Origin: Marsupella aquatica
Lineage: Eukaryota; Plantae; Marchantiophyta
Length of the DNA stretch: 64,000 bases
Assembly (NCBI GenBank): GCA_973895155.1
Contig: OZ316893.1
Location: forward strand, 27,538,210-27,602,209
Direction: 5' to 3'
Positions 28,071 through 57,012 of this stretch are shown here, one piece after another (positions within the stretch are counted from its first letter, which is position 1; each line of letters opens with the position of its first letter). A program made the position numbers and the translations under genes. The notes beneath the pieces were generated by a model, which did no database searches, was not told where the DNA came from, and saw only the letters and a program-made list of their open reading frames with translations.

Positions 28071-29662
28071 TACTCTCAGTTTTGTTGCGGATTGACAATG
28101 TCATTAACTCAAAATTATGTTGCTTTACAGGTATGTCGGCCTAGAGAGGTTTTAAAATTGAATTTCTGCAAAAAAAAATTTGGATTTAAAGAATTGCAGA
28201 ATTGTCTCTGGCTTGCTACGTGTCCATTGACACTCAGGTCCTACACTCATTTCAAGAGTTGTGTAAGGACTGTACCACATCTACGAGATCTGTAGAAAGA
28301 TTTTTGCATGGAATATTTTGAAGTAGAAAATGACTTGGTATTTGGCAGGTGACAATCTCTTTCTCTCTCCCTTGTTTTTTTGGCTATCACGTTTTCCCTC
28401 TGTCCCTCTTTGTTTTGTAGATTGTTGTCTGAGAAATCTGAACATGTGTATATCTCTAATGCAGCGTTTCAAGTGTTCTCGGCAATGGACACTTCTGGGC
28501 GAGCACAAAGTGGATGCAGCATAACGTTGGGGAGGGATCTGGGCGCCTCAAAGCTTAGAAGCATCCTTAATTCTAATTTGGGGAGTTCTCGTTTTTAATG
28601 AATCAAAGTTTGGTCCAAGAAGTTTCTCATCTCTTGTGGCCTTGGTGATTGCATAATAGAAAATGAGAGAGCATGAATAGGACAACCTATTGATACTTCT
28701 GGGCCACTTCTGGGCCACAAAGTTGATGCAGCATAAGGAGGGGGGATCTGAGAGGCGTTGTGCTCACAAGCATGTTAATCTCTTTTAACATAACTCTAGT
28801 TTGTTCTCTGTTGTGTACAGTAATGCTATGGCCATCCTATGGGTTTTGAGTACTTCACATTATAAGGTGATCATTTTTTCCTATTCTACCTTTGTGTGTG
28901 TCTTGCAATAAGCTACTTGCTGCATATCACTTGTAAAACTTAAAGTATAAATATAGTGAAGTTTTTGTGTGGTGCAGGACAATTTGGTTTGAAAAGGTTA
29001 TTTCTTGGAGGGTGAAACAAGAGCATTTGTGCCTAATCTCTTTTAAAATAACTGTAGTTTGTATTCTGTTGTGTACAGTAGTGCTATGGCCATCCTATGG
29101 ATTTTGAAGACTTCACATCCTAAGGTGATCATTTTTTTCTATTCTACCTTTGTGTGTTTCTTGCAATAAGCTACTTACTGCATATCACTTGTACAGATTA
29201 AAGTATAAATGTAGTGAATTTTTTGGGGTATAACCACCGTGACAGCAAATAGTAAATAGATTTGCTGTTACGAGCAAAAATTTACTCATATGAGGATTTC
29301 AATTACTCATAGCAGAAATTCTGTTTACTCATACGAGAAACTATTTACTTGTACGAGTTTTATAGGTTATTCAAAGTTCAAAAAAATGGCTCGATGTTAA
29401 AAAATAACACCCATATAAGCGCTCTCTGAAATGCTAACATAATGGGGCCCACCATTCAATGATAATAAATGGGCAATATAAAGGTCATTATAAGAACACA
29501 CGCTTTATTTAACAGTCAATATATTTGCTATTTGTTTCAAATTTTGGCTAGTGCCAGGCGCTAGCAACAGACAACACATTTTTCTGGATAAGAAACGGGT
29601 ACATCTTCTGTCCGTTAGAAAAGACAAATGCCACTTAAAGTTGTTGAACGGCACCAAATTGA

Positions 29663-32600
29663 CTACATGTCCGTTCCATTTTGTCGATCAAGCAGGTAAC
29701 GGACTTCGCCCAATGTCAGAACTGGTTGACTAGATAGTGTTGAATCGTTAAGACTCAACTTTAACACAGTCCTGAATACCCAATATAGATGTTTGCAAGG
29801 CATGTAAGGTTTCCTATAAACGTGCCTCCGATAGAAATCCTCACATGAACAGCAAGGGAAACAACAAATCTGCACCCAATAAGAGGCAGCATTCCTCTCA
29901 TGTTCATGTGTTCTGATACAATACTGCTTCCCCCACGCATTCCCACTCGTGACATCTCTCTCGCATACAAGCCTCATTACTTCTGTTTCGGATGCTTCGA
30001 TCTTCTTGTAATGTGTTTGAGTTAGATTCACTCTCTGCAAGCACTTCCTTCCATTCCTGGAGCCACATTTGAAAATTGGGTCCGCTAAATTGATCCTCTC
30101 TTGGAACAAATTCACATCGATGTGTAACTCAGACGGGGATGGCTCCTGACCTTCCCTTACCTCTCTTGTACCAAGTAGACCTTGTTCTCTCAAGAATTGG
30201 ATCTCGCCCTCCTGGAGATTGGTCCCTCTCGCAATGGGAAGAACGAATGGTATATTGGGAATGTTTGAAACACCTCTTCTTGGCCGACTTTTATGACATT
30301 TGTTGTTTGGGCAAAACCATATCTGGTCCGGATGAGGTTCTCCTCTAAAAAGTCTACATCCTCTTACAGATATTGCAACAACTCCTTCTGGATTTGGAAA
30401 CCCAACCTTCTTTACTCGATTTCGACATTCATCGCAGCTTTCTCTCCAACCGAGGGTCCCATTACAAGCTGGACCAGCACCGCGTTTTGTAGTTCGTCGG
30501 AGCTGCCAGAGACCTGGAGCTATGTCAGTTTCCATTGGGAGAAGAGATTCCTCAGGCGCGGCCTCAGCTTGATGTCCTACGGGAGGAACAGAAGATCTTG
30601 TTGTCCGACATGAGGGTGTCTCAAGGACGACGACCTCCTCAGAATCTTCACCCTCAGTTTGAGACAAATTAACAATGCCACTTCCACCAGCAGAAGGTGT
30701 GGAAGACATCTTCTCGAAGTCTGTGGAATGGAGGTTTCTTCTCTTCAAACCCCTTGTATTTGGTGAAGTCACAAGGATAGTATCATGCCTGTGAGAGTCT
30801 TGTGCCGAGACATTCCCACTTGCATTACCTTTTCGCTTCACCGATCGAGTTATGACGTCTCCATTCAATGGAACAGTTCTTTCCAAATCAAATTCAGCTG
30901 CGTTGGAAAGAAGGAGATTGGTCGCTTCTTCAAATAGACGTGGAGACCCTGTCATGTCGGCAGATCTGAAAGCCAGCTCAAAGATAGTGGGTCCAGTTCC
31001 CGGATGTAATCCTTGACCGTATGCAGTATATGATGCTATCTGACATACGGCTCGGTTTTGGTCAGTTTTGCACCCCTCCATGAGGCCAACCCGCTTCTTC
31101 ATTTGCCATGCCTTCATGCCTGCATGGATCGATTCCAAACCAGTACAATTCGGAATCATACCTGCCTCCTCAGCACTCTTGCTCTGTCATCGGAAACAAA
31201 ATTTAGTACTACAGTAATTCGCGACAAGTGTAGTTTGTATTTATGCAATATGGACTCTCTAATATATAAGTAGCACCTGGTGCTATCAAATCTCTTGCAT
31301 GACTGCCATGTTCATAGTTGCAAAAGTGTGCTTGTTCATACTAGCGCTTGGCGCTACTATACTGTAACAAGGAATTGGAGTCAGAATAATCATTTTCCAT
31401 ATTAGCGCCAGGCGCGATTACAAATCAATGGTAACGGACTATCATGAATCTAAGAAAATCCTTACCATCCTAATGAAGTTTCCCCAGGCCATTGTCTCCA
31501 ACGGACGACCCACCATGAGAGCCATCCTTGCAACATTCGAAGCTTCCCCTGATGGCAATTTCCAGCTCTCCACCAATCGTCGATCTCTCTTGACATACGA
31601 TATGCATCCAAAAATGTTTTTGCGTTACGAAGACCGTCCCACATCTTCTTGTGTTCTTCAAGTTTTCCTTCTGGAACACCTTCGCGTGAATGCCGACGAA
31701 ATGACTAATAAAAATGAAACGCATCTGATCGCTCTCGGTCAGGATCAGGTACCCCATTGAAGAAAACATTTTGCACCGCATTCCATCCAGCCTGGGCATT
31801 GTCCGCCATGAATCCTTGAATTTGAATGTTCTCCAGGCCATTTTCACTCGCAACTTCTATCATCAATCGCCACGCTCTCTCTAAGGACTTGGTGTCTTCA
31901 GCCTTTAATTCACAAGTGAAAATTGTACAAAGCGCCCGATAGTGATGATCATATACATGAACACTAAAAGTTAGCCAGTCCGATGTAATTCTATGCATGA
32001 CGTCGAAACTCACCCATGACCCTTCTAATGAACCACCGGTCTGCATTTTCCGGAGAAGGTCGATCCCAGATCCTTCGCCTTTCACAGTCATCTTGAAGAT
32101 GTGAGCACTTTCATCTCGACATCCTTGGCCTGGAAGCAAATACCTATGAAGAAAGGGAAGTCTCACACACTTTTGCATCCGTACCAAATATTCAAGCTCA
32201 CCTTTGTCTTTCTGGTCTTGTCTCACACTTCGCAGAACAGAAGCAAACTTTTGTGGGGTAGCAACAACCATGAGGGACTCCTAGATCTCCTTCTCCTCTT
32301 CCGAAGACATTTCCTCCATGGATTCCTCACGGAGGGCATTGGTTAGAGAGTCTGTAGCCGCATTCTTTATCAAAGCGGGCGTAGCTCGTGGATTAGCCTG
32401 GAACTCCTTTGCGAGGTGAGTCTTAGCAACCTTTTCAGCCTCTCTCGACCACACTCGACGACTGGGATGGTTGTGAAATCCCATGTGCACAGCCAGTTGG
32501 GACATATACGCCAAATGAGTTGAATCCACTTTGGCCAAAGGATACATATAGAACATCATGGCCGGACACGATGTTGTACACATCGGAAGTTTAGAGCAGT

Positions 32601-33492
32601 GGTGACAGACAATACCACCTTGCGGTATGAGTTCTCCAACTCGAAAGGTGCCTGATAGTTTTGGTGATCTTGCCCAGACTTGGTTGTTCCTAGTCTTTTT
32701 GTCTCTCCAGAATTGGCAAGAATTGTTCCGACATTCAAGAGAACCGATACACTGAACCTTTCCAAAATCCCACATCTTCTTCGGTAAAACATTCGAAGAT
32801 GTCTTGACAATGCGCGTCCAGTAATAGCAATCCTTCCCGCGGTCCATGTCCTTCAGTCGTTCCCCTTTCGAATTCATGCAATCGACTGGAGGCAACTCAA
32901 ACACAACATTCCCATTGTATGTCATCGGGAGGCTGGGAACTATCTGATGCGTGAAATCCTTCTCCCTGATGAAATGAGATAACTCGCTATGTCCCTTTGA
33001 TTTTAGGATAGTATCCATCGCACTTTGCCGATATACAATTGGGATATCTTGAACCTCCATCTTCACCACCAAGGGATCCACTGAGATCCTTTTCGGGACA
33101 TCAAAGGAAAGGGGTGAATTCTTCCCGTCGTCTTCCGAAGTGTCAGACAGATTGACAACATCAACACCACCGGGAACAGGACATAGATCTTCCGATGCTT
33201 CAGAATCTTCCAAAACAAAGACCTCGTATACTTTCTTCGGATACATTGTCCAAAACCTGAGTCCATCGACGACATCATAGAAGATGGTATTTGCCTTTGA
33301 ATCCTTAGGGAGGAGGGACACAGAGAGAATACACTCTTTGGAAACATCAAATCTCAACCCCAAGTATTCATCCAAAACTCTCCTTGACTGAGATTCAGGG
33401 GATACGATAACTGTGACGACATCCCACGTGTCCTTGCGTCTCACTACGATCGATCGTCCCATTTCAGCGGAAGATAGTAATCGATGTCTCAC
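29663..33492 (-). pseudogene. MULE transposase: GCM-like Zn domain + DDE core + SWIM finger
   Basis: CIGSLECRNNSC..CHHC..C..HMGFHNHP (GCM/WRKY-like). D1 in SFDVMHR, D2 in FMADNAQAGWNAVQNVF, DAFH (CxxH position) and E in GLESIHAGMK. SWIM CSCEDF..PCKHL. Intron 31465-31184. Stops at 32281 and 31705, frameshift near 31485. Confidence 0.85.
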
Positions 33493-34108
33493 TTCCCCAA
33501 TCGGTTTAAGGCTTGTTTGATGTACGAGGTTAATAACGACAGTATAAATGAACGTTGAATAATGACAAAGAAAGTTATGTTAATGGTTTGGACGATGTAA
33601 ATCAATTGAATTTTGTCATTATTCAACGGCTGTATTGAACCAGCTTAATTGTCGGGAGTTTAATAGCATCGGGCGCTACTTTTGTGAATAGGGAACAACT
33701 TGACAATGGAAGCATGACTCTCGACCGAATACAGTACTGCATGGCGAGGAGGACAGGGAAAACTCAGATCGTAATAATAGCGCTCGGCGCTATCATCAAA
33801 GCTCGTACGTTCTACCTCTAACAATAGATAGGAAATCCGTGAATCGGTCCAAGTATGCACGTGTGCATTAAAGTTTCCACAATCGACGCATCTCGGACGT
33901 CAATTGCACGGTCGGAAACCATTACATCTAAGACATCCATGGAAATCCGAACGTTCTCACCTCTGTCCTCAAAACCTGGCCGGCGAGTCTGCCTCTCACC
34001 ATTTGAAGTTGTTTGTTCTTAGAAACATTTTTTGCTCTCCTGCGTCCATTTTTATACGAGAAACTTCCGTTCAGTCTTGATCGTTTAGAGTCGTTTGTTT
34101 AAGTTTCC

Positions 34109-37100
34109 ATGGCTCCACCACGAGCTAAGGGGAAGGCGCAAGTTACGTTTCAAAGCGGCAGCGATGGAGAGGGCGTTGAGGAGAAGTCTCTCGCGAAGCC
34201 TCCTTCTCATTTGAACGTCCCGATCTCGGCGAAGGGGAAAGTAATTGCGAAAACCCGGGTTGTATCCGCACCAGATGGTGCTCCTTAGGCTAAAGGTTCA
34301 AGACCCAAGGTGTAAACCTCTTGAAGGTGGTTTCAAGGCTAGGGTTTGGCCTTGAAGAGGAGAATGAGTGGGAAGAGTTTGTTAAGAAGATGAAGCATCG
34401 ATTTTTGATGTCTGATTCTGAGAGGATGACTGAGGGTACCTTTTTGGACTGGATTCGTGAGAGGAACAAGGGGTTGGGGCCAGAGGAGCTTCTCTTGGAA
34501 TTCAAGAGAAAACTTGGACAATTGCCTTCTACTGACCTTGAATTCCTTTCCCTGCAAAAGGTGTCCCTATTTTTGCGTTCAGCTGATAAGAGGCTTAGGG
34601 ATGAACTTGAGTATGCAATTGACATTGTTAACCCTCGTAGAAGGTCTAAGGTAGATTGGAGTCATGTGGAAGAAGCTGTAGAGATCATTTCTAAGAGGCG
34701 AAGAGATAGAGCCTTGGATGATGAGGCTGTTGCAAAGCCAACAGCTGCTCCATCTAAGGCAGGTAAGGGGAAAGTAAAGGAAGAGCCTTCCAAAGATGAG
34801 AAGGGGCTAGAGCCATCTGACTTGGCCAAGATCCTTGAGAGTCTAAACTTGTTGTCTAAACAAGTGTCTGGTCCAAAATCAGGGCCATGAGAAGGTGATA
34901 GGGCAGGTCCAAGTCGAGCTACAAATTGGTCATGTATGTGGTGTGACTCAAAGGAGCATCAAAAGAAGGAATGTCCAGATCTTCCCAAAGCCATTAAGAG
35001 TCATAAGGTTAAGTATGTGGGTGAGCCAGGCATGAGGAAACTTGCCTATTTTGAGTCAGGAGAGGAGATTCCTTTCAACAATGGAAAAGGAGGGATGAAA
35101 GCCTTGGTTGAGAAACGTTTGACTGAAGCTGAGGTAAAAATGGTATCTCTTGCATTTGAGCCTGAGGTTTACACCTTGGGTCTTGAACCTTCATCTTCAA
35201 GAGGTTCGCTCCTACCTATTCAAAACTTACTCAAAGACTCAAAAACTGCCAAAAGCGGCAGCACTTTAGCAGCATCACGGTGTGAGAGAGAGCCCTTGCC
35301 CTTCGAACTCTCCTCTTTAGTACTCTCGTGGGAAGGCCTGGGGCAAGGCACAAGCCCTCCACTTATGGTTTAAGTCCTCGACAATTTTCAGCCCTTGATC
35401 ATCCATCAAAAAATCTAAGGGTCAAAAATGAGCCAAAATACCATCCTTTGTAACTTTGTAACCAAATGAGGCTTCGCACTTTCGAAAAAACCTCGACCTC
35501 CTCCAAACCCTAAGGCACGTCCTCATCCTCAATCCTATCCATTCATCCATTGACTCAACCAAGATCCACCGTTGATGTAGGTTCAATGAATCTAGTCCTT
35601 ATTTCACAAAACTAGGAATCTGGCCCATATCTCACAAAACTGATGCACTTGGACCAAACCCTCTTACATGCCTTGAACCTGGTCACCTCCTCCATGTATT
35701 CAATGAACCTGGTCACCATGTCGCCAAAACCCTAGATACCTTGCTTGTTGAGCAAGCAACCTCCATTCCGCCAATCCGCCAAATGATAACTTAATCGCTG
35801 GTCACAAATGAAAAACATACCCCACAATAGTAACAAGGGTGGGTAGGCTCGACCTCATCCCTACCTTGACCCTCATAACTCTACTTCCTCCTTCACATTG
35901 GTCAAGTTAGCTCAAGTCAAGTCAACTTGCCCAAGTTAGAAGCAAAAATTGGTTTCAACTTCCTTCACAAAACATGAGGATTCCTCCTTTAGGATGGAAA
36001 CCTCATGACATCGGTGTTGCTGGAATTTCAATGGACGATTACATTTCCAAGCATGTCTTGTCCTTTGGGAAAGATTTCAGAGGATTGGAGAAGGAGCCTC
36101 CACAAATTCCTCTATGTCGATTGATTCATATGGAAGTGGTGCGGACGTTGCAGAAGCAGAGCGCCTCCATCGACAAATTGAAGAAGTCATTCCGGATTTC
36201 TGGATACAATTCGCGCATGGGCATGCCATTTTACGTACAGCCAACAAATGCGGATGGGGTTCCATAGATTTGCACTAATGAGATTAGAGCCTCTTGGGAC
36301 CCAATCTGGGTTGCCGAGAATGACAAGTTCGAGGAAGAGTGTGACGTTGATCCTGATTTCAGAGTTTTGAAGGACAAGATATTGTGTGTCTTCGATGGAA
36401 ATCACCGTTTGTATTCGTGGTCGATTGTGACAGCAAAGCAACCGGACAACATTAAGTACCACCCTCATGTGACTTGCATTGTTTTCAATGGAGATAAAGG
36501 TTCCCTCGTGGAGCTCGAGGCTGCCATGCACGCTGTCAACCAGTAAGCCATTCCTCAGGACAACCTCATTTAATATGACGTACTAGTTCAAGATGGATTT
36601 TGGATGTGATATTATCTTTGGTGTTTTACTAGCGCCCGGCGCTGCTAATTTACATTTAAATTTTGACGTAGGTTGGGACAAGCTGTGGTCGAGCCGTCTT
36701 GGATTCTTGATGCCGACATAATCTCTCGTCTTTTATCCCGTGACCTAGAGCACTACAAACCCCTAATTGATGCTACGAGTTATGCTAAGTTTGAAGCCAT
36801 TCGAAAGAAGACTCGAAAGGGTTCTTGGTATACACACAAGATGCCACAAGACGCGCTCATCTACATTTTGTGTGAGAACAAGATTAAATCTTACACAAAC
36901 CAGTTCAAAGTGGACATGGATTTTGCAGCCGCCCAGGGGACTCCGTGGTCCGAAGAGGAGACGCAGAAGAGGCATGAAGCTATGATGAAGGAAGCGACAA
37001 AAGACTGGGCTATCAAAGTAACAAAGATCACTCCATTGCTGCACCCTGATTTTGGTGACTACTTGGCTACATGTTCCGAAATGTTTCTTGTCACAGAGAA

Positions 37101-39580
37101 GAACAAAAGAGAAAAAAAGCCCGATACAGTTGTTTGCACTATGGACTGTGCTCGTCTGTTTACTGCAGTTACTTATCTGGATCCGAAGTTAAGGTGTACC
37201 CTTCTCGTTGCCCATTGCACTCCGGAGATTCGGAAACAGTTCTTTCATCCGGCTAGTGTGAACGACAATCCTGTAAAACAATGGTGCCATACCTGGCATA
37301 TCTGGAATTAATTGGAGGAAATTGCTACTGGATTGATCCTCACCTCGCTCGAGCAGGTTTTGGATTGCATGCCAGATGATCGTCTTGTCAAGTCTGGTTG
37401 TGAGTCCCTGGATGTTCTCATGAAGTCCATTATCAAAGAATTCAAATCATTTGGAGACCTTGTCAAGGCTAAATTTTTCAACATAATGTGGCCATCAAAG
37501 TATGCAGACAAGGAGGACTACACTGAGCGGAACCGGAAATGAGCGAAGCGATACGTTTACCATTTCTACATGTGGATGGAGTTGCGATCTCCTGAGGTTT
37601 TGTGGGCTTACCCTGGTGCATTTCAAAAGTGGGTGATTATCAAAGATGGTGACCACCTTGTTGATCTGTATTCGATGTACCCAGCTGAGGGAAAGTTCCC
37701 ACCTCGCGCCTTGTCAGAGTGGGAGAGACTCCACTGCCCATGGTATCTTGACACTGACAAATGGGATCTGCCTTTCGACGAGGTGGAGAAAGACGCTTTC
37801 ATGAAGTTACAGCAGTCGCAAATCCCAGCAAGGTACATATCGGAGATGAAGCAGGGTCTTGCGATTGAAGTGGACGCTTCGACAACTGAATTGCAGAAGA
37901 AATGTGAGACAGTCATCGTGCATGTTGACCAGAGCCGAAAGCCAAGAGTGAAGGCCAAGAATGAATGATCGCTTAAAAAATGTTAAGTTTGCCTCTTAGG
38001 ATTCAGTAAAGTATTCCCGCTCTTGTTTGTATGACGTATTTTCCCCCAATTGATACTAGCGCCGAGCGCTATTATGAAAACTAGTTCCGTTGAGTACCGT
38101 CTCTCCATCTTTCAGGGGGAAGGAAGTCGGATGCTACCGGTGATGTAAAAAAGGACGCTACTCCTTAGGCCTCTGAAGCTAACACTAGTGCGGAAAATAC
38201 ACCAGATCAGGGAACCCCTGGGGAGAGTGGAAAGACAGTGGTTCCAGTGGACGCGACAAGTATGAAGAAGAAGGAAAAGAGAGGAACACTTGAGGATAGG
38301 CTCGGATCTTCGTCCCAAGATTCAGTTGCGTCTACTGGATTGCAAAGAGATGTGGGGAATTTCAAACAAAAGTGTACTCGACATTGTTTTGTGGAGTCGA
38401 GTGTTACATAATGTTTTGATTCCTTGTTTAACAAGGGAGAAAAGCCGGACTGGGTTTCTAATATTGAAGGTTGGGGGAAAGAGCTAGTGAAGTCTGGGGA
38501 TCGAGCAAAAGGGGTTGTCCGAGGGGGAAAAGAAAGAGCTTTTGGAGTTGATGCTGGTTTCATATATCTTCCAACTGGGTTGAAACCAACACTTGTGGAT
38601 AGGAAGGTTCCTAAATGGAACCTTCAAGATTATACGATTCCAAGTGCCTTTTTCAGAACAATGGATCCTTTCCTAGCAGATGATGGATTGCTAGCAATTT
38701 TGCACAGAGGCGACTATGACCAAGTTTCCGAGGTCATTGCAGCTTGTCAAGATTCACAGAAATTCCAGTGTATCTCGACACACAATGTTGTCATGGGCAC
38801 TCCAATGTACAGGCCTCGCTCGGATATGCAGGTATGTATAGTAGCGCCTGGCGCTATTCCAAAGTTTCTGTTTGGTGTCCTCCTTTGGAGATTGACGGCG
38901 ACGCTAGCGCCAGGCGCTAGTGTGGAATATCCTCTTCGTGAAATGTTTCCGTATTCTTGACGTAGCATCTGATGTTTATTATGAACAAAACGTTATTCGA
39001 TGTGCAGATTTTTACGCTCACTCTCAATGTTTTTGGGCGTGTTTCGTCCAAAGGTAGGGTCCCTAAGGATCCCAAATTTCGGCCTCTTTCACATACAGAG
39101 GATCCTTCAATAACCAATCTCATTGGTTTTCCCGTGCCAAAAAATGATCCTCTGCCGGAGCTTGCGTTCGCCGGGAATTCAAGGCTGCCTGTGGGTTTCA
39201 TGCAGTCCGTTTTAGAATTAATTACCCTCCCTGGGGATATTGTCATGGACTAGACTGTTGGGGCCGGAAGTACATTTGTTGTTGGAGATCATTGTGGGAG
39301 GTTTGTAGTTGGGATTGAAAATCGTAAAGAGTTTCTTGACACTGCCACAAAAGTTTTCTTTGGACTTCTCGAGAGTAAAGAGGCCTCCACGTCCACGCCT
39401 CCGCACCGGCAGGTGGGGAGTAAGAAGCAGGACAAACTCCGTTCTGTTCTTAATTTTGATTCTGACGAGGACAATGATGGAGGCGATGGTACGCAACAAT
39501 CTAAAGATGATGGGGTCTCCAAGAAAGTGGTGAACCTCGGGTCTTCTGAATCTAAGGATAGTGAAGAGTCTTTTGAGTAA
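34109..39580 (+). pseudogene. ParB-like domain + beta-class N6A/N4C DNA methyltransferase-like fusion gene (element 1)
   Basis: ATG at 34109. ParB-like IPLCRL..VVR..IDKLKKSF..SGY..PFYV..FDGNHRLYSW. MTase-like VDAGFIYLPTG, PFLADDGLLAILH and RLPVGFMQSVLELITLPGDIVMD*TVGAGSTFVVGDHCGRFVVGIE. Introns 36543-36672, ~37985-38114 and 38832-39007. Premature stops and a retroelement insertion in exon 1. Confidence 0.75.
34287..35983 (+). mobile_element. Rearranged Ty3/gypsy-like gag fragment inserted in exon 1 of the ParB-MTase gene
   Basis: Gag-like ORFs 34321-34890 and 34936-35373 with Zn knuckle CMWCDSKEHQKKEC. Flanked by a CTCCTT duplication. Removing it restores the frame (PDGAP-LGWKPH). Confidence 0.7.
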
Positions 39581-39639
39581 TGATCTTCAGCTTCCCTATC
39601 TTTTTTTTCTTTTTAAGTGTGACGTTAGTGTCTCCAACA

Positions 39640-40010
39640 TTCCACCATTTTCTCGGACCCGACTGAAGATATTGAATTCAACTTTCCAGGTCTGAGTGGA
39701 ATCTTTGGAGGCGCTTTCAACTACGGAGGAAAGTCGCTAGGAATGCAATAGAAACCCCGGAGAAGCTGTTTGTCTTGCCTTCTTATGCAGAAAAGGCGGC
39801 TTGAAAAGCAGATTCTGTGAGAATGCTGACTTGGGAAAGCAAAGGCCTGAGGCTCAAAAGGGGTCTGATAGAAAGTTTATGAAGAATCGCTATGTCGATG
39901 ACATCGTCCCGAGCAAGTATGTAGACGACGAAGCTGAGTCTACTGATAGATCACAAAGTAGTGAAGAAGAATCAGAACTAGATTCGACTGATTCAGAATC
40001 TGATGGCTAG
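39640..40010 (+). pseudogene. Small conserved acidic ORF/exon of element 1
   Basis: TPEKLFVLPSYAE, LTWESKGLR and YVDDEAESTDR align with ORF 57018-57455 of element 2. Disrupted by a stop and a frameshift. Confidence 0.6.
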
Positions 40011-41540
40011 CCAGACTTTAAAACTATATTTTGGGGATATAGATATTGGCTATTTTACAAAATAGCGCTTGGCGCTATTGTGAACACATGTAATATTGAT
40101 GGGTGTTTATAAAGTGAGACGGACTGTCCACATTGTTTTTTGACTAAACTTTCCTTTGTGAAGCGGACAATCTTAACTTGGGATGTATTACAATTGGGTG
40201 TTTACCCTAAAGTTGATCTCTGTTTTTAAGTCTGTTATTGAGGTCTGTATACTAGCGTCGGGCGCTAGTATACATATGTTTTGGGGGATACTTTTGCAAA
40301 TAGATGTTTCAGGACTGTAGCGCTGGGCGCTAGTATTACGATGTGTTTCAAAATGATGGATTTTAGAGATTTCGATCTCATTTTACGAGAGATGTCGGAT
40401 TAGGGAAGATTTTTTTGGTGCAGACATTTGCTGCTATGAGCTTTACTGTTTGTTGTTTGCTGTTTGCTGTCACCGTGAAAAGCCTCAAGTTTTTGTGTGG
40501 TGCAGTAGTTTTGATTCTCAAGTTGGCATGGCAAAGTTGGGATTAATTCCTGAAAGATTAAAGTAATTCTTCATGCAAGGGGAAGTAATCCTTGAGATGA
40601 TAGTGCAACTGGTATGCTCCAACTGTACCTTTAACTGTTAGATTGAGCTCATCATATTCCTCTGCCCAGGTGAAGAATGTCCCAACAGAGCCTCTACCCA
40701 GGTGAATTTTCATTTTGTCTAACTAATTGAAACCAGACTGTCTAGCAATTATTTCACATAATAGAGATTATATGGTGTCTCACAACTCTTGTGTGTGATT
40801 ACAGGACTGTTGTTGCATCAATTGTACATGTCTTGCCATGATCAATTTCTGGTGAGCAATGAAATCACTCCTTGAGCAAGTTTGACAAAGTTCACGGAGC
40901 ATAAGCTAGTTTGGGGGATAGGATTAGATGGTCATGATTGCCCACATAGTCAATCTATTGACAGTTTCTGAAATGTACAATTGTTTGAAATAATAAAAAT
41001 GTTTGGATCCTTTCAATATAAGATCTAGGAGTTCTTTGAGTTCTTTATTGTGAATGTCATATACATGATGTTTTTGTTATTGTTTAGTGGTTTCCAATCA
41101 TTGTGATGTAACATGTTTACATTTTTAATCTTGTTGTGGGTCTTGTTGTGGACTCATTGTGGATTTCATTTTGAATATCAATCATGTGAATCTGTGCAAG
41201 ATCTCACCTCCCATGAACCCTAAAACCTGAGACACCCCAATTAATGACATCCCAAATGACTTCACCTAATGACATCTCATAAGACAACCCTAATTGACAT
41301 GCCATATGACATCTTAAATGACACCCAGTATGACTCTAAAATGACTCCATAATGACTACACGTGTTGCATGTTCACTTGCTAAATAGCTGTCATTTGCAA
41401 TAGTCATTTGAGACATGACTGAAATAACTACTAATATTGCCCACCTGGTCAACTGGCATTGGGCCATGTGTCATATTTTCATTGGTGGAAACATATTTAG
41501 TCATTTCTGAAATGTTGGTAATGACTAGAAAAAAGAGGAG

Positions 41541-46159: not shown

Positions 46160-49100
46160 GGTTGATCTGCGTGTGCTGGTACAATCTAAAGCTCAGCAGC
46201 ATCCACTTGTTGCTCACCAACATCAACAAACTCCTCTGGTTCCTCTGGCACAGGAACCAATTTCATAATTGGAGCAACTCCTTCTCTCCGGTCATGCATC
46301 TCATGACCAATCTCCCCCTCAATGAGATCCAGGATAGGAGATTTTCCTTTGTCAATACGGGAGACATGAGTATTCTTCCCCCCTTCAATAATCTGGATTT
46401 ATTGAAGGAAACATCCCTACTGACAACCAGCTTACAGGCAGTAGGATCTATAGCCTATAGGCTTTCACACCACTCTGGTACCCAAGAAAAACACATTTTT
46501 TGGAGGTAGGATCCAACTTGGTCCTATTTTTCTTCGGTGTGAGAGCGTATGCATCACTTCCAAAAACTACCAAGCCATGATAGTCTGCTTGCCGCTTATA
46601 GCGCATCTCAAAGGACAACGTTTTGAAATTGATAGCACTAGAAGGAGAAAGATTATTTTACCAAATAAGCTATGGTATTGACAACTTCTACCCAAAATTC
46701 TTGTGGTAAACCTGATTGGCTCAACATACTCCGTGATTGCTCCAATAGTGTCTGATTGAGCCTCTCAACGACACCATTATGCTGCGGAGTATAAACTGTG
46801 GTGAGATGGTGAGTTATCCCCTATTCTGAATAATACTCTTCAAATTCCACTAAAGTGTACTCCCCGCCGTTGTCTGACCTCAGGCTCTTCACCCTTGTAT
46901 CCAAACACTTGACCGTGTTTCCAGTCTGATTCTCCACCTCGGCCTTCCACTTCTTAAAAATGGACAAGACATCAAACTTATGCGTCATGAAATAAATCCA
47001 CATTGTAAATCTTGAGTAATTATCAATAAATGATACATAATATAACTTTCCAAGGTATGAGGGAGTCGGGGATGGACCCCACACGTCACTATGTATGTAC
47101 TCAAGAACCGCCTTGGAACGTTGTGTTCCAACACCGAAAGCACGACGATGCTGCTTTCCAAGAATGCAATGCTCACAAAACTCTAATTTACAAGATTGCA
47201 AATCATAAATGAGTCCATGCTTCCGTAAGATAATCTTGAACGGATAGCCCTTCACGGCTAGACCACAATTGAGTCATCTCCTCGTGAGACTTGGTTACAT
47301 TGGCCTCTCCACATATAGTATTGCCCTGCAACACATACAAATTCTTCTGTTTGCTCCCTCTCAAAATCACTGTCTCTCCCAACCTGACTTGAAGTTCACC
47401 ATCAATAATACTCCATTGATGACCATTTGAATACAACACACTAAGTGAAATCAGATTCTTACACATTTGAGGTACATACCTGACTTCAGACACTGTGCGC
47501 ACAATGTCATCAAATATTTGAATCTTCACAGAGGGTCATTGTAGCGTGCGAGGAAACAGTAAAAAATTTCCTCGCACGGGATCATTTTCTCCTTGGAATA
47601 CCCAAAATTTAGCACGAAAACAACATCGCTAGCAAAAAGTGACACTCGCTAGCCTAAAAGGAACCTTCTATTCCACCTATTTATTTAACTCCCGTTGGGT
47701 TTAAAAAGCGATCCCGACAATGCATTGGTACATATTACGTATTCCCCGGACACGAACGGTCGTCGACGGCACCATAATTCAACATATAATTCTACCGTAC
47801 ATCAGGACAGCGAAGTCGCTAGCCATAACTATGCCCATCATTCTCGCACATTTTTACATATCACGTAATCGTCGCACAACAGTCCACTTAAAGACCCTAT
47901 AAGTGACCATCATCATGGAACGTACGTCAGGCCAGCAAAATCGCTAGCAATCGTGACACCCATAATTCTCGCACGAACTTTGGCGTGCAATCGTTAAAGA
48001 CGTGAATAAATCATAATGACACGGGACAAGGAAGCATGTCTTTTGACTTAAACAATCTCGGGAGCGCATCCAAGGACAGAATCCAAATCTTCATCCAGAC
48101 ACCAAGCGTGAAATGCACAACAGACAAGATCTAAGTACAACCAACAGACAAGATCCCAATCCGTTGGGAAGGATCTCCAGCTATCCACCATCCCCTATAT
48201 CTTACTCGCTTCTTAAGAAACATTTCCATTCATTTCCTTTCAGCCATTCTTTCGGACTTTCATTGGGCTCGACGCTTACTCAAAGCGCGATTTGCTTGTT
48301 GTGTTCCCGATTGTCGAAGCCCTTCCGTGACCTCTGCTACTGTCAGCGAAGCTACTGTCATCCTGGAAACTGTCGTTACTATTGTCGAAGCAAGGAGCAT
48401 ACATTTTCCGCTCGGATCCGGATCGAGGTATCCCCGTTCTCTATCATATGTTGTCCACTTGCAATTTGGTTTTCTATCAGGTATTCGTTGTCATTCGCTT
48501 TCTTGTTCGTCAACATAAGAAGACTTTTTGAAAGATTTCAAGTAAACTTATCGCATTTGTTTTCGTTTCAGGGAGAAATGGCACGGAACGAGGGTGGATC
48601 TTCTCGTAAATGGATTCTGGAAGTTCGGCGATATAACACCGAAACTGACGGTCAACTGGATTCACCTCCAAGGTCCATAGAATCAAAGCAGACTTAGAGT
48701 ACTGTCGACGAACCTAAGAGGAGTACATCCCCTTCCGGTAGCAAGGCTCCCGTCCTATCCAAGGACTACAAGACGGCCGCACCTTGTAAGGAGAAATTGA
48801 CGAATCCGGTCTCCCACACACAAGTTTCTTCTCGTTTGAAAGCGCCTGTCTAGCTGTAAGGGGGTATCGGCAAAGCGGAAGAGAGAAGAGGAGGAGTCAT
48901 ACTAGAGGGACCTCGAGATCCACGACTATTTCACGGAAAACATCCTCGCTTCCTCCCTCTGACTATGATACAATCTCCGACTCTGACTCCGATGCGTACA
49001 AGGCAGCGAGCCCTTGAATAGGAAACAGTAACGGTAGTCCATGGTGTAGGGGCATAGACATTTTGTAGACTGTGTCTATTTTGTAGATCTGGGATCCGAA

Positions 49101-49552
49101 AACGTGATATCGACACTCAATGTCCAACACAGTTGTAAGGGAGAACATCTTTGTTCATTTTGAAATAACTTCTTGAGAAGATTTCCGACTGCAATGTTTG
49201 GACTTACAGTACTAGTTTTGCTAGCGACATCGCTAACAAAACTATGCGTGACTAAAATGGTTTGTTTCTCCGAGTGTATATCCAAAAACCATTTAAAATA
49301 CATGAGTTATTGAACTCTACGTTATGTAGAACTTGGTCAAAAAGAAACCATTTACGGGAAACATAAAACTTTACTTTTACGGGTTTAACGCCAGAGACCT
49401 CGCTAGCAAAATAAACACTATTGCCGATACGTATAGAATAGTACTAGACCCTCGCTAACATTGCATACGCAATATAATTAGTGAGGTGGACGACTTTCCT
49501 ATGTTCTGAAAACCAAAAAGGTGACAAAATTAGGGACGCTGAGACGTTCACC

Positions 49553-52500
49553 TCAACGGATAATAGAGATTAAGTCAACTACACTGCAACGGAATCTGTC
49601 TAGATTCAGTGAGAACTTGTTTAAGTACACCCAAAGGAGGTGTTTACAAGACATATAGGGTCTTCCTCTCGTGTGTCTCTTGTAGAAGTCATCACATGAG
49701 CAAGAAGGAAAGCAACACACTTGGACCCAGTACTTGTGTGCAATTTTAGAATCTGTCTCGTGAGTGACAATAAGATATTGCCATCCCCACCCGTTTCTGA
49801 GGCATATCTTCTCACTTCCAATGACTCTCATATGTTCGTCAGTCGCAGATCGAATGCGTTTTAGAAGCTCCGGGGTGTTCTGGAAACATTGACGAACGCC
49901 TTTCCCATTCCGAGTCTTGAATCTACGGTTTGGAATACCAATGTCAACTCTTTCTGGGAAGGAGTTCACATCATTTTGGAGGTCAACACGATTTGGAGAG
50001 GAGAACGACCCAATTGGTGCTGGATCAGAGTATGATAATCCTCTTATTTCAATCCCATTTCGAAGAAGAAAGTCAATCTCTGTTGGGGTCAGCCTGGTCC
50101 CACGCTGGACTTGCAATGCCTCAGGTGGTTCCGGAAGCTGGGCAAGAGTCCTTCTACCACCTGTTTTATGGCACCTATTATTCGGACAGAAGTATAGAAG
50201 CTGACAATGTGGAGATGACAACCTCAATCCGTGAATCGCAACACCAACCACTCCAGCCCGGAATGCCTTCATTCCAGTTTCTTTGATGAGATTCCTACAC
50301 TCATCTCTTCCAAACATACTTCGGTCCACTCGTCCATTGCAAACAGGTCCACTCCCTTTTCCACTCCGCCTCAAGTGCCAGGTCCCATATGTCACATCAA
50401 CCTCTTCAACAAAAGGGATCCTTCGGGGTGCATCCCGAATTTCATCCCGATTATTTTGAGGCTGTGGTATTTCTCCAACGTAGTTCGGGTCCTGTGTTGT
50501 ATCTCCACGGCTAAGATCTTCACCATCATTTGATATTTTGAGAGACAGTCTAATGTTTCAGTCGGTGACCAAAATACATTTACGAAAGAAGTTTTATTGC
50601 TAGCGATCTCGCTAGCTTAAACTCATCAGAAAGAATTCACCGTTACTCACCACACGAATAAAGTTACCCCATTGTCTCCACCGCACAACCCACCATGAAA
50701 TCCACCCTTGTAGTGATTTAAGCTTGGATGGGTGACAATTCCCCTCTTTCCACCATTTTTGAATGTCTTCGGCGATACGATATGCTTCGACGTATGTTGG
50801 AGCAATTCTTAACTTCTCCCACATCTTATAGTGCTCCGCATGACACCCCTCCTTGATCCCCTCCAAAGTGTGTCTTCTGAGGGATTGAGAGAGATGGAAA
50901 GCATCACTATGCTCTTTCAGAGGATTTCTGACACCCCCAAAAAATACCCTTCTCACAGAAATCCAGCCAGCCTCCGCATTGTCTGCTATGAATCCTCCAA
51001 TAATGGGATTATGCACTCCATTCTCGGATGCGACATCTACCATTAACCTCCACGCAGTTTCAAGCGACTCTGTGTCTTCGGCTCTCAACTCGCAAGTGAA
51101 AATTGTACACAGAGCGCGGTAATTATGGTCATACACGTGTGCGCTGAAGGTCAACCATCCACTAGTGATACGATGCATCACTTCAAAATTGACCCACGAA
51201 CCTTCCAATGCTCCTCCAGCCTCCATGCTCCTCAAAATTTCCACACCCGATCCAGGACCATTTGTACTCATTTTGAATACATGCGCTCGATCATTTCTGT
51301 TTCCTTGACCGGGAAACAGGTACCTCTGCACGAAAGGGAAATTGTTACGTGATTGCATTTCACGAAGTGAGTCAAGTTCTCCTTTTTTAGGATTATCCAT
51401 CTTCACACTCCGAAGAATAGCTTGGAACTTTGGAGCGGTAGAAACTACTCCGATCGAACTCCAAATTTCTTGTTGTTCTTCTCTCGACAACTGAGCCGAT
51501 GATTCTGGATGCAATAGCGAGACAAGGTTCCCAATTGACTGGTTTCTCAGACATGCGGGAGTTGAGACTGGATTCAACCGATGGACCCCTAAAACAACAT
51601 CTTCCGCTGTTTTTCTCGCATAACGAGATTTTCCCTTCCAAACAGGGTGATCGTGGAATCCCATATGCACAGCCAATCTGGACATATGCATTGAAATGTG
51701 ACTCTCCAAACCTGGCTTAGGGTAAACATACAACAGTTTTGCCGGGCATTCTCAAATACAGAGAGGCCTCTCTTCACAGAAGCCACAGACAAGTCCGCCC
51801 TCACTCACTTGCTCTCCAAGACAAAAGATGTCAGTCAGCAACCCTTTCCCTCTGAAAGCGCAGTCATTTTTGACTCCAGTATGTTTCAACTTCCGGCAAC
51901 CCAAATTATGGCATTCAAGATTTCCAGCGCAACGAACTTTCGACACAGCCCAATGAAACCTTGGCTTCAAATTTGCAGATGTAGTGACTAGTCTCGTCCA
52001 AGGATAGCCGTCCTTCTCTCAATCCATATCTTGGAGACCTCCTCCCCTCCCGGCCCCCTCGACTGGAGGAAGTTCAAAAACAACGTTACCATTGTATGTC
52101 GATGGCAGAGTCGAAACCTGACATTCATTCCATTGATTCCCTCTTCTAAATTGTGCAAGTTCACTCGCTCCACTGATATTGAGAAAAGTGTCATAGGCAC
52201 TCATCCGATACACTGTGGTCATGCTATCCCCAGTCCTTTCAATCAAATTTGTCGCTAACCCTTTGGGTTTGGAACCATCTCGTGACTTCATCGAACCACA
52301 AGATGTGTCTTGCCTTATACTCTTTGGAGATATTTCAATGACCTCAGGAGCTCTGTCTTTGGGAGGCGTCCCAAGATCAATCATAGGAGTTTGATGAACG
52401 GGATCTAATTCCATGGGTTCCAAAATGACATCAGGAAAACCATCTTTACTGGACAGAACCTCGACACAAGATCCAACCTTCAGCGTCCAGACCTTCCCGG

Positions 52501-52717
52501 AAGTACTACTGTCCTCTCTCAACTCGTGACTCCGTGGCCCATTTTGAGAATACAACTCAAACAACTTCATGAGAAGGTCATCTTTTGGAATTCCAAAATG
52601 AGTTGCAAGGAATGACTCTGTCACCCTAACCTCCGACGAGTCAGGGGCACTTGGGAGTACCACCACGTCTCCCGTGATTCTACGCTCCAAAACCACCTTG
52701 GAATTCATCGACATCAT
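49553..52717 (-). pseudogene. MULE transposase of element 2 (GCM-like + partial DDE + SWIM), internally deleted
   Basis: Homologous to the element 1 transposase: TYNGNVVFELPPV, CAGNLECHNLGC, HMGFHDHP, FIADNAEAGW, SDAFHL and CSCDDF..SCKHL. Intron donor at ~50648 is at the same position. The ESxH segment is absent. Stops and frameshifts. Confidence 0.85.
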
Positions 52718-53322
52718 CTCTTCTCAGCATACAAAAATACAACGACTATGTTTTGAATCGCCCATACGAATCCTATTTGCAGGACCAAAACTGGGTTTTT
52801 TCCCAACGGAAACAACAATCCGAACAGATTGTCAGTCTGTTCCCGTTGATTTTACCGTTATTTTGTCTTTTACTCAACGTATAGGGACGTCTCCCATGCT
52901 AGCGATCTCGCTAGCTTGGTTTTGATAGTTTTATGGCAAGCAAACTGTTGATTTCAACTCTTTTTAAGGATATCTGTGTCATTGAGTTTATGCCAGCGAT
53001 CTTGCTAGCCAAAAAGTCAAACTGATTTTTGATGAAGTTTACCGTTAGGATCCCGTTGGGAATAGTCAACGGGTACCATAATGTCAACGGTACAAATTAC
53101 ACGGGACACCTGGAGTATTTTGTATGGATAAGATTATCGGTCGTGAAGGTTGTTCTTCGTGTTTTCCAAAAGGTACAACTAGTGGTCCCTGCCAGGAGAT
53201 TTCTGTTATTCCTTACATCGTACTGTTGATCATTGTCAGTATTCACTATCGTAACTCTGTAAGGCTTTGGAAGTTCATAGCAGTTTGTACGGCTGTCCTA
53301 ATTCTCCGAAAGGAGGTGCTCT

Positions 53323-56300
53323 ATGGACGTTTTTGACGCGTGCAGCCGCTGCAGTCTCCGGGCTCGAGCACTCTTCTCCGAAGGGTTTTATTTCATGGAG
53401 TCATTGTTGTCTCCAGAGAGTATTTCTTTGAGAGGATCATTTCAGTCGAGGGAGTCGACAAGGAGAGAAACTAGGTCCACAGCGAACAAGAAAGCGCTTG
53501 CAGCGGGATTGAAGACTCCAAGGCGGCCCAAGATGGTGACAGCGGTAGATGTAGTTGCTCGTGTGTTTGATCCGAGCGCTTCGGAACCTTACACGGTTGT
53601 CATAAACCGTCATCTTCACTCGTTTGGAGTGAATGAGTTTGGATTTGCATTGGCTCCCCCCCGAATTCCTCTGTGCCGGATGAGAAACATGCAGATTGTC
53701 CGGTCTCTGCAGAAGGATTCCACTACGATAGACACATTGAAGTCCGAGTTCAAAACCCAGGGTTACTTCGAGGATGCGCCTCGATTTTACGTTCAGATGA
53801 CAAATGAGGATGGAGAAATCCAGATCTGTACAGATGCCATCCGCGAAACTTGGGATGATATTTGGGTGTTGCAAAACGAGGAGTTTGAGCGCGAATGTGA
53901 TTCTCATGTTTCTTTCCAGATCCTCAAGGACAAAATGTTCTGTGTTTTCGATGGGAACCACCGATTGTATTCGTGGAGCCAAGTGGCGGAGGAACATCCG
54001 GATGATATTAAGTACCATCCTCAAGTGGTCTGCAAGATCTTTAAGGGTGAAAAGAACTCTTTCGTTCAGATCGAGTCGGCTATGCACGCATTGAACAGGT
54101 GGGACTTCTCATGATAAGATAGTTCTGAAATTTCATTTTTACCAGGTCACTTTCAGCTAGCGATCTCGCTAACATGAGGCATGTTGTGGCAGGTTAACTC
54201 AATGTCATGTAGAGAATTCCTGGGTTTTGGAGGCTGAACGCGTCCAGAAGATTCTGAACAATGACTTATCTGTTTACAAAGATATCATCGACGCTGAGAA
54301 TTACAAACTTTTCCAGCAGAAGATGGCCAATGTGCGGAAGGCGGCATGGTATTCGAAGAACATGATGCTGGATGCCTGCACTTATATTCTATCCGCTGCT
54401 AACATTGCATCGCAGACCGAGGACCTTAAGAAGAAATTTGCTCTTAAGGAGGCTCAAGGTGAGCCCCTTTCCAAGGCTGCACAGGACTTAGCAATGCGTG
54501 ACATGATGAAAGAACAACTTGCTGATTGGAATGTGAAAGTTCCAAAGATCGGTCCATTACTAAATCGTGAGTTTGGAGACTTTTTCAAGAAATGTGTCGA
54601 AATGCATAACTACTGTGAGAACGAGAGAAAGGAGGCCCAGAGAACAGATGATAAAGGCAGGGGAAATGTTTCTTGTGGTCTTGATCGAGCTTGATTGTTC
54701 ACTGGTGTGACCTCTTTATCCCCAGAGCTCCGATGTACACTCCTGGAGGCACAGTGTTCGTCCTGAGCTTCGGAAAAAATTCTTTCATCCAGGTCAATTC
54801 TCAGATGGTGAGACTAAGCTTTCGCTTCATCGTTGGGCAATGTGGGAGCAAGTCGAGTCAATTTCGTCTTCCCTCATGTCTAAAATTGTTTCTGAGGTAA
54901 TGCCTACTGTTCCTAAGTCGAGGATCCTTACGTCTTCAGAGAAGACGAAAGCTTCGCTAATCCTTGACATTGAGGAGGATTTTGAGGATTTCCAAACTCG
55001 TGTGAAAACTTGTTTCTTCAAGCAGATTTGGCCACCCAAGACAGGAGAGAAGGTAGACATTACATTGTTTCGGAGGAGAGCGAAGAGATACACGTATCGA
55101 TTTTTTGTAGACAGAGAAGTAGTAGACAAATTTTACTAGTGGTCCTACCCAGCCTGTTTCTCCCCATGGATAGTCGGGGTTAAAGAGGACCCTACAAGTG
55201 ATAAGTTTGGGGAATATTGTATGTTTCCATGCGAGGGAAGTGAAGCTCCGAGGAGATTGAGCAAGTGGGAGGTTCTTCATTGTCCATGGTATTTGGACTC
55301 GGACAAATGGTCTGTGACATTTGACACTGCAGAGAAAGCAGCTCTTCACATGATCAATCGAGGATTCCTTCCGAAATCTTACATCTCCGAGTCCAAATTG
55401 GCACCCACTGATGCTGAAGTTGGTGGTTGCGAGGCGATGGAAAAAGCTTGTCTTGGTGTAGCTACCATAGTGGATAGGAGTCGAGCACGGAAGCCAAGAA
55501 AAGGAGCATTGAAGGACACATCCAAAGATGGGTCCCAGATTTCCGGAAAGCCAAGTAAGTCTGTTAATTGTATGTTACTTTTTATTTTTAAGTCCGGATG
55601 GGTGTCGAATATACAGATACTAATGTCTTTTGCTTCACAGAGAGGAGGAAGGGAGTGGCTTCTGAGAGTTTGAAGAGTGGAGCAGATGATGGTGAGGAAC
55701 CTCAGTCCCCAAATGCCGAAGTCACAACAAAGAGCGCAGTGGATTTAGGAAGTATAAAACGTTTGAAACGGAAGCGGAACATCCAGATTCTTTCAGATTC
55801 GGATGATGAGGAAGTTTCAGTTGCTCAAGGTGTTGCTCGGATGTGTGGTTTGAAGATGGATGGGCAGCAACATTTCCTGGCTCATAGCAATTTGACCGAT
55901 ACTGCAAACTCAATTAGTGTAAGTAAAGTGAGGCCATCTTGGATGGGAGATGGAGATCGATGGATTACTGGGATGTCGAAGAGCGTAGAGTGCCCGAACC
56001 ATGTCGTAATTAATGGAAAGCCTTATGCTGGGATTGGAGCACATTTGGGATTCATTTCTCTTCCCACTGGGCATAGAACAAGCGTTACAGACAAACAGGT
56101 TCCATCTTGGAATGTTTGGAGCAAGAAACTCCCACATTATTTTTTTGGAGTGATGAGACCAATGCTTTCAGACGACGGATATGTTGCTGTCTTGCACAGC
56201 TCAGACTTCAATCACATGAGGCAAATATTTACGGCAGTCGAGCAAAAAAACAAATTCAAACATGTGCAACAATATACCGTTTTGTTGTCCACCCCTTTAT

Positions 56301-57012
56301 GGAGGGCAGATATGGATATTGAGGTAGTTATCCCTTAAATTTCTTGAGAGTTTTAATGCTAGCGATGTCGCTAACAAAATTATAATTTTTATCTACCAAA
56401 CATATCTTGTCTAGGTGTTAATTTTCTATTTTCCGACTAAGTTAATGCTAGCGAGCTCGCTAACAAAGTTAGCATTGTTTCTGATGTATTTTGGTTTTTA
56501 TGCAGGTGTGCACTCTCATCCTGGATGTTTTTTGTCGGGTGGAATTTAGTGCAAAGATTCCTAAAGACCCAGCGTATGTTCCATTGACGTCTTCGGAAGA
56601 TGCAAGACATAAGTCAATGTTGAGTGTTTGTTACCCTAAGACTGACCCCTGTCCAGAAGCGGCTGTTGCTGGATCAAAAAGGCTTTCAATTGGGTTCATG
56701 CAAGTCGTGATGGAATTCCTCATGAAGCCCAAAGATATAGTCCTTGACTGGACTGTGTGTGACGGTAGCTCGTTTTCTGCCGGAGAATTCTCCGGGAGAT
56801 TTGTTGTCGGTGTTGAAGACAGGGACATTCTCCATTGCTGTGCAGAAAAAACTTTAAACAGTGTTCTGGCGAGGCATTCGAGCAAGGCAAAACAGATTAG
56901 GGATCAGCCAGCCAAGGTTAATCAAGACGCTGGGTCGGATGATGAGTTCACGATTCCAGGGGATGAACAGGCTGGGCCTTCAAGCGAGAAAGACGAATTC
57001 GACCTGGAGTAA
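53323..57012 (+). pseudogene. ParB-like domain + beta-class N6A/N4C DNA methyltransferase-like fusion gene (element 2)
   Basis: IPLCRM..IVRSL..IDTLKSEF..QGY..FYV..FDGNHRLYSW. AHLGFISLPTG, MRPMLSDDGYVAVLH and KRLSIGFMQVVMEFLMKPKDIVLDWTVCDGSSFSAGEFSGRFVVGVE. Introns 54099-54192, 55555-55640 and 56324-56505; introns 1 and 3 are at the same codon positions as in element 1. Stops at 54692 and 55137, frameshift near 54760. Confidence 0.78.

Follow-up and report, generated by a model that had tools for sequence, protein, structure and literature searches.

A window of 64,000 nucleotides from the liverwort Marsupella aquatica (assembly GCA_973895155.1, contig OZ316893.1, positions 27,538,210 to 27,602,209 of the forward strand; all coordinates below refer to this 64-kb window) contains two paralogous DNA transposons, element 1 (E1) and element 2 (E2). 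Each pairs a transposase gene with an oppositely oriented accessory gene, which is predicted to encode a ParB-like domain joined to a methyltransferase. The non-coding DNA of E1 carries 13 copies of one palindrome, and that of E2 carries 10 copies of a different one. We argue below that the E1 palindromes are probably binding sites of the element's own accessory protein.

Organization of element 1

The features of E1 are as follows.

29217..29225 (+): left target-site duplication, 9 bp, AATTTTTTG
29226..40486: E1, Mutator-like DNA transposon; this copy carries stops, a frameshift and a nested insertion
29226..29249 (+): left imperfect terminal inverted repeat (TIR), 24 bp, GGGTATAACCACCGTGACAGCAAA
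29663..33462 (-): transposase gene, two exons, intron 31184-31465
33463..34108 (no strand): divergent intergenic region with two palindrome sites, presumed promoter
34109..39580 (+): accessory gene, predicted ParB-fold, helical DNA-binding-like and beta-class methyltransferase domains; introns 36543-36671, 38006-38115 and 38832-39007
34286..35983: nested retroelement fragment in accessory exon 1, CTCCT direct repeat, ends approximate, no sites
39691..40010 (+): small terminal open reading frame (ORF)
40463..40486 (-): right imperfect TIR, 24 bp, GAGGCTTTTCACGGTGACAGCAAA
40487..40495 (+): right target-site duplication, AAGTTTTTG, 8 of 9 bases the same as in the left one

The ends of E1 were set at 29226-40486 because contigs from all four runs joined position 29216 to position 40487 (empty-site joint). 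Transposase and accessory gene are arranged head-to-head, on the minus and plus strands, respectively. From its alignment pattern, the transposase carries what we take to be a Cys/His N-terminus, a D-D-DxxH-E core and a C-terminal SWIM-like motif. Together with the 9-bp target-site duplication and TIRs beginning with G, the core and the SWIM-like tail indicate the Mutator superfamily. Both traits of Mutator-like elements (MULEs), a target duplication of 8 to 11 bp and TIRs beginning with G, were present in E1 and E2 (9 bp in each, exact in E2; imperfect TIRs of 24 to 27 bp). Searches for the transposase gave no Pfam MULE or SWIM match and no PDB sequence match, Pfam named no relevant domain in the ORFs of E1 or E2, and neither Pfam nor PDB sequence searches bore out the GCM label given to the transposase N-terminus. 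With the E2 transposase core as query, 20 matches were obtained, the named ones being from the liverworts Calypogeia fissa and Riccia sorocarpa. No RNA data set was among the listed sources, an outcome without bearing on expression. The two elements also have asymmetric ends in common, with GGGT on the left (29226, 47533) and GAGG on the right (40486, 57819).

The small ORF past the methyltransferase stop has a counterpart in E2 (57085-57455), both with LPxYAE...YVDDEA-like motifs. A similar peptide closes some Riccia and fern gene models, and the ORF is a candidate for an alternative last exon or a third gene. The nested fragment (34286-35983) contains a gag-like ORF with a CCHC-like knuckle and an inverted repeat (34281-34320/35164-35203). 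The ratio of observed to expected CpG was 0.78 in E1 and E2; the nested insert had a value of 0.27 and flanking DNA one of 0.42. This contrast is not used as evidence of protection, since age and coding content confound it.

A palindrome dispersed through the non-coding DNA of element 1

Allowing up to two mismatches, the E1 palindrome was found at the following positions.

Site 1, 29549..29563: 3' of transposase, 1 mismatch
Site 2, 31271..31285: transposase intron, 2 mismatches
Site 3, 31342..31356: transposase intron, exact
Site 4, 31403..31417: transposase intron, 1 mismatch
Site 5, 33664..33678: intergenic, 2 mismatches
Site 6, 33778..33792: intergenic, exact
Site 7, 36630..36644: intron 1, 1 mismatch
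Site 8, 38057..38071: intron 2, exact
Site 9, 38842..38856: intron 3, exact
Site 10, 38905..38919: intron 3, exact
Site 11, 40063..40077: 3' arm, exact
Site 12, 40253..40267: 3' arm, 1 mismatch
Site 13, 40318..40332: 3' arm, exact

These are the 13 positions that a first-pass annotation of this DNA had listed, and all of them were correct: TAGCGCNNNGCGCTA occurs in seven exact copies in the window, and six further sites differ from it by one or two mismatches. Dinucleotide shuffles of the window (n = 100) gave a mean of 0.39 and a maximum of 3 such sites, and in an unbiased count the motif ranked first among the window's spaced palindromes. At this tolerance there was no match outside 29226-40486, in agreement with the annotation's statement that the motif spares exons and the DNA beyond E1. 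With three mismatches allowed, two additional matches appeared at 32613 (transposase coding DNA) and 44410 (outside E1).

The site consensus was longer than first noted, RV-TAGCGCC-N-GGCGCTA-BY, with partly symmetric flanks. A palindrome with three free positions had been proposed; the palindrome stands, but position 7 is always C or T and position 9 always G or A, giving TAGCGCC-N-GGCGCTA. The centre base is variable while the arms are constant, and the flanking bases are symmetric as well. Departures from this core were C>T or G>A in 11 of 13 cases, the bias that methyl-cytosine decay would produce.

All 13 sites lie in non-coding DNA, as the annotation had it, compared to a share of non-coding start positions of ∼23.5% of E1 when the nested insertion is not counted (0.235^13 = 7e-9, a figure resting on our own exon annotation, in which shifts of a few bases at three borders move no site). 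Seven are intronic and six lie outside introns, two of the latter being intergenic. The claim that every intron holds a site was borne out for the four GT-AG introns (31184-31465, 36543-36671, 38006-38115 and 38832-39007), which match E2 in position and phase, but not for the 110-bp spacer before the small terminal ORF (39581-39690), where no site was found. Distances from splice donor to site varied widely, from 10 to 180 nt. The palindrome was absent from both TIRs (29226-29249 and 40463-40486) and from the first 300 bp of E1, and is thus distinct from the TIR, as had been noted. Because the flanks of the sites are mutually unrelated (mean identity 28%, best 45%), the sites are dispersed singletons and not tandem copies. 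At position 33668, within site 5, other E1 copies have the consensus base G (among the best 40 differences).

A different palindrome in the sister element

E2 shares the gene layout of E1 and is inserted in a Copia element.

47533..57819: E2, paralogous family, with an exact 9-bp target-site duplication, CTTCACAGA
49553..52723 (-): transposase gene, core 63% identical to that of E1
53398..57012 (+): ParB-fold/methyltransferase gene
47808, 47933, 49222, 49392, 50601, 52900, 52994, 54158, 56360, 56449: E2 palindrome sites

The empty-site joint of E2 was present in three of four runs, and one run contained 35 contigs with differing left flanks. Its accessory protein is 56% identical to that of E1 in the ParB domain, 41% in the middle and 34% in the N-terminal half of the methyltransferase. 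The E2 palindrome, GY-TAGCGA-NN-TCGCTA-RC, is present in 10 copies, all non-coding; 10 of the 11 window matches to TAGCGA-NN-TCGCTA lie inside E2, six of them exact. The E1 palindrome was not found in E2 at up to three mismatches. TAGCG arms are common to both motifs, while the inner bases differ and the spacing differs by one base.

Although the non-coding compartments of the two elements align no better than shuffles, both hold sites in five of seven matching compartments: transposase intron (three in E1, one in E2), intergenic region (two and two), intron 1 (one and one), intron 3 (two and two) and transposase 3' region (one and two). E2 half-sites of the right-hand type occur near both ends (47626, 47646, 57760, 57777), in the same orientation at both ends and not inverted.

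Further peculiarities of E2 were an extra short ORF region in the left arm (48579-49020), with the near-sites 47808 and 47933 upstream and no E1 counterpart seen, and a transposase exon 2 (49553-50557) that is ∼170 codons shorter than that of E1 and apparently lacks the catalytic Glu segment. The Copia-like retrotransposon split by E2 occupies 46821-47523 and 57829-58677, and more Copia-like pieces lie at 18966-22334.

Predicted fold of the accessory protein

With the N-terminal exon of the E1 accessory gene as query, 247 relatives were found at E <= 0.001; among the 20 that were looked up, the named ones came from Riccia, Calypogeia and the fern Adiantum. In Riccia gene models the full accessory protein ends in a PF01555 methyltransferase (P0185, E 1.9e-7; P0201, E 5.2e-6), and a profile built from the Riccia methyltransferase homologues matched both E1 and E2. 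A word search with the ParB exon gave no long homologues, and no relatives were found in viral contigs.

Structures were modelled for the Riccia homologue P0043, not for E1's own protein. Among 48,161 chains, the best three matches to the N-domain of this model (pLDDT 81) were KorB (Z 8.0; 8qa8, rmsd 2.6 over 95 residues), Pnob8 ParB (Z 7.4) and PadC (Z 7.3). Modelled alone (pLDDT 91), the middle domain matched the parS-bound DNA-binding domain of ParB (6s6h; Z 5.4, rmsd 4.2, 113 of 140 residues) as well as KorB, Spo0J and KorB-OB, and KorB residues 150-252 continue the N-domain match at 52-150. Four DNA-binding domains of the ParB family were among 50 rows, with whole-domain coverage and Z-scores of 4.3 to 5.4 that are within noise. 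In Foldseek searches, the top 11 rows for the P0043 model were Noc and ParB, but at E >= 0.08, and the middle domain gave no ParB match. In the Atlas, the feature-nearest entries to the ParB-like region were fungal DUF3723 clusters, and ParB_N+HTH_ParB was structure-near at a low TM of 0.31 to 0.40; no paper tying DUF3723 to ParB was found in the literature.

Family members have a conserved Arg upstream and a conserved Asn downstream of a (D/E)GNHR motif. Catalytic motif IV of the methyltransferase is of the LDLPTG type in Riccia and near-canonical in ferns (DVPF/DFPI) and in the metagenome locus L001 described below (DIPF).

Palindrome arrays in distant relatives

Of roughly 260 metagenome loci estimated to exist, a degenerate pattern scan recovered 120, of which 80 had flanks; a first scan had confirmed none of 243 candidates. 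Nearly all 120 loci belong to a separate transposase clade (roughly 30% identical), while the short loci L097 and L116 are nearer to E1 and E2. The 120 loci contain no copy of the E1 or the E2 motif. The ParB profile matched eight of them (six distinct), always head-to-head and about 6 to 9 kb from the transposase core; at least 8 kb of upstream DNA was available for 29 loci (26 distinct).

In this clade a third, decayed palindrome type with the core TCGGCGCCGA and family-specific flanks clusters in the introns of the ParB-like gene, namely in its 5' intron and, in L001, also before the methyltransferase exon. Counts with tuned motifs in 14 loci were 10 (L004), 7 (L008), 6 (L037), 5 (L001), 3 (L078), 2 (L052, L053), 1 (L036, L018) and 0 (L016, L023, L044, L071, L073). 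Flank type tracks the transposase tree, L001, L008, L037 and L036 sharing one type and one clade. Tandem-like palindrome arrays were seen in the distant clade only.

In L004 (9500-11800), L008 (13600-14600) and L053 (15500-16200), a further palindrome type (CCGAGCTC-like) and the TCGGCGCCGA core occur in alternation, which suggests two binders or a composite site. A subterminal word, CCACGGTNATAGG, occurs in L073 (about 680-790) and L071 (about 4596); it resembles the E1 TIR core CACGGTG and is a candidate transposase site.

Other features of the window

Elsewhere, the window contains a polyphenol oxidase gene (10127-11917, minus strand; PPO1_DWL, Tyrosinase, PPO1_KFDV) and, in GC-richer DNA, an intronless 2OG-Fe(II) oxygenase ORF (892-1920, minus strand; PF13640). 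Two tandem arrays have units of 408 bp (23303-25199), with hairpin-like palindromes in the unit, and of 86 bp (15471-16140).

Discussion

We propose, with a probability of roughly 0.68, that the 13 palindromes are family-specific binding sites of E1's own ParB-like accessory protein. This protein is the best candidate for a binder because of its fold match, the motif swap in E2 and the arrays in the ParB-like gene of distant relatives; to that extent, the parS-like ParB sites of the first-pass annotation stand as likely family-specific targets. A dimer of the accessory protein would probably grip each two-fold site through the ParB-type DNA-binding domain, and protein and site are likely to co-evolve, each family addressing only its own copies. 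The change of motif at many unlinked spots, in two families of one genome, fits co-evolution with an element-encoded binder and would not readily originate from a host factor. Sites would build up wherever coding constraint permits, tiling E1 and its divergent promoter.

Several observations weigh against this proposal. The modelled Riccia homologue is only about 25% identical to the E1 protein, the Z-scores of the DNA-binding domain fall in the range of unrelated helical matches, and Foldseek returned nothing at E <= 0.001 for either model. The phosphate-binding motif is DGNHR, (D/E)GNHR across the family, and not GERRxR or GARRYR; for catalytic motif IV, E1 has IYLPTG and E2 has ISLPTG, where (D/N/S)PP(Y/F) would be canonical. 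In E2, intron 2 is without a site and the right arm has half-sites only. Among the distant relatives, no ParB domain was seen in 20 of the 26 distinct loci that extend 8 kb or more upstream, the palindrome motifs were defined on the very loci in which they were then counted, L052, L053 and L078 were no better than shuffles in a generic scan, and the co-occurrence of palindromes with ParB is partly trivial because the arrays sit inside the ParB gene. Likeness to the KorB operator, discussed below, extends to 4 bp in each arm and could be fortuitous.

What the bound protein would do is less certain than where it binds. It may shield the element and the divergent promoter from host 5-methylcytosine (5mC) silencing, or tune expression, a role to which we give an even chance. 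More tentatively, it could spread from its sites as a KorB-like nucleotide-gated clamp; CTP-driven loading and sliding, which the annotation's parS-like interpretation had included, is unsupported because the ParB arginine motif is non-canonical. The annotation had also suggested that the protein marks its element by methylation, and this part is not supported either: writing of methyl marks is doubtful in this lineage because motif IV is eroded in E1, E2 and Riccia, the E1 accessory protein is unlikely to be an active methylase, and in this lineage it probably works by binding. The fullest version of the idea is that a bacterial-type nucleotide-gated clamp loads at family-specific parS-like palindromes in every non-coding stretch of early-land-plant Mutator transposons, extends from there along the entire element and protects it from, or marks it against, silencing, clamp and site being re-specified as families split. 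Taken as a whole, it would go beyond what we consider probable.

In the main rival reading, in our view quite improbable, it is the element's transposase that would bind these internal sites and so activate or derepress the family to which it belongs. For Arabidopsis AtMu1, the transposase is described to bind and activate cognate copies by itself (bioRxiv 10.64898/2026.08.24.746577), and binding by the transposase would explain family specificity as well. The E1 transposase carries a Cys/His N-terminal domain, and E2 half-sites lie near both ends, some sharing CTCGC with the E2 TIR word CTCGCAC. However, AtMu1 peaks are reported at TIRs (same preprint), and the motif is missing from the E1 TIRs and first 300 bp; the terminal half-sites of E2 share one orientation and are not inverted. 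In the distant clade, moreover, the arrays lie in introns of the ParB gene, L071 and L073 showed none in their transposase intron or 3' arm, and these two loci have a separate subterminal word.

That a host protein binds the sites, or that they form small RNA hairpins aiding splicing, is very unlikely. Introns hold seven of the 13 E1 sites, and the palindromes could pair with themselves, but six sites lie outside introns, two of them in the intergenic region, splice-site distances are widely variable (10-180 nt from donors), full-arm pairing is blocked by loops of 1 to 2 nt that are too tight, and the co-resident families E1 and E2 have different words with different spacing. Least probable of all, the sites would be neutral relics (footprints of tiny TA-targeting inserts, or local gene conversion) surviving where no reading frame is broken: both motifs start and end with TA and coding constraint alone accounts for exon exclusion, but the window's remaining DNA, over 40 kb and mostly non-coding, has no E1 sites, the arms are fixed while the centre base varies, flanking bases are symmetric, and matching compartments are filled in both E1 and E2.

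Self-recognition by an accessory protein has been proposed for other eukaryotic transposons. Sola1-1_Ec32 of Ectocarpus is described with a fusion of a ParB-like domain and an N4/N6 methyltransferase (about 1100-1200 aa) opposite the transposase, a fusion suggested to act on its own element by binding and modifying it (PMC12477816). E1 resembles it, in layout and domains, by a ParB-like/methyltransferase fusion on the strand opposite the transposase, but is a Mutator-like element of a land plant. For Sola1-1_Ec32 palindromic sites are unmentioned, "palindrom" occurring nowhere in the main text and in one unrelated row of the supplements (PMC12477816). In Plavaka elements of the red alga Bostrychia, the ParB-like accessory gene PAG3 is reported with adjacent inverted-repeat arrays across families; its authors advanced a self-recognition hypothesis and noted homologues in Chondrus Mutator elements (bioRxiv 10.1101/2025.02.11.637652). 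As described there, PAG3 differs from the E1 system in its 2OG oxygenase fusion, its tandem arrays beside the gene and a transposase superfamily unrelated to that of E1, whereas in E1 and E2 the sites stand singly and scattered, in introns of both genes, and the motif is clearly swapped between families. The algal-type trait set (a ParB-like domain fused to a DNA-modifying domain, placed opposite the transposase, with inverted repeats) is present in E1 and E2, and ParB accessory genes beside inverted repeats, together with the idea of self-recognition, are already published for algal transposons.

The Arabidopsis VANDAL MULEs offer a second parallel. According to the description in PMC5735166, their introns and their intergenic and terminal non-coding DNA contain motifs specific to each family, VANC evolves with its targets, and VANC binding and demethylation were shown experimentally. 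E1 and E2 likewise carry family-specific motifs in non-coding regions. In contrast, the VANC motifs described are 8- to 9-bp words amplified as tandem repeats and not palindromes, the E1 sites are palindromes with unrelated flanks, and the E1/E2 accessory protein shows no sign of VANC homology, direct comparison aside.

In plasmid RK2, KorB is described to recognize the operator OB, ATTTTAGCGGCTAAAAG, a palindrome of about 16 bp, and to exert long-range control of the mobile element's own genes (PMC11790492). This operator and the E1 site share TAGC...GCTA arms. Compared to KorB, ParB and Noc as described, the E1 family lacks the canonical phosphate motif and has a large helical insertion, a methyltransferase fusion and a eukaryotic host. 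A bacterial-type amino-methyltransferase is reported from the liverwort Marchantia, where DN4MT1 is a host gene with an intact TSPPY (bioRxiv 10.1101/2021.02.12.428880); the accessible text of that preprint has no mention of ParB and shows no relation to the E1 family. Fusions of ParB-HTH and methylase are described in chlorophytes and chytrids only, in the accessible text of PMC4738411. In the openly readable literature, preprint supplements aside, we found no land-plant or Mutator ParB-methyltransferase with such sites, nor did we find in print the land-plant MULE context, the dispersed intronic sites or the motif turnover between co-resident families.

Two papers have proposed self-recognition or self-modification by ParB-like accessory proteins in eukaryotic transposons, and the two co-resident families described here, with defined, different sites and readable genes, make that hypothesis directly testable. 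If it is true, a self-recognition system of bacterial origin would stand beside VANC, and the role of the ParB fold would reach into land-plant chromatin. The accessory proteins would then be site-specific DNA-binding modules, and on the fullest version of the idea the families would supply a naturally evolved collection of orthogonal ParB-site pairs in eukaryotes.

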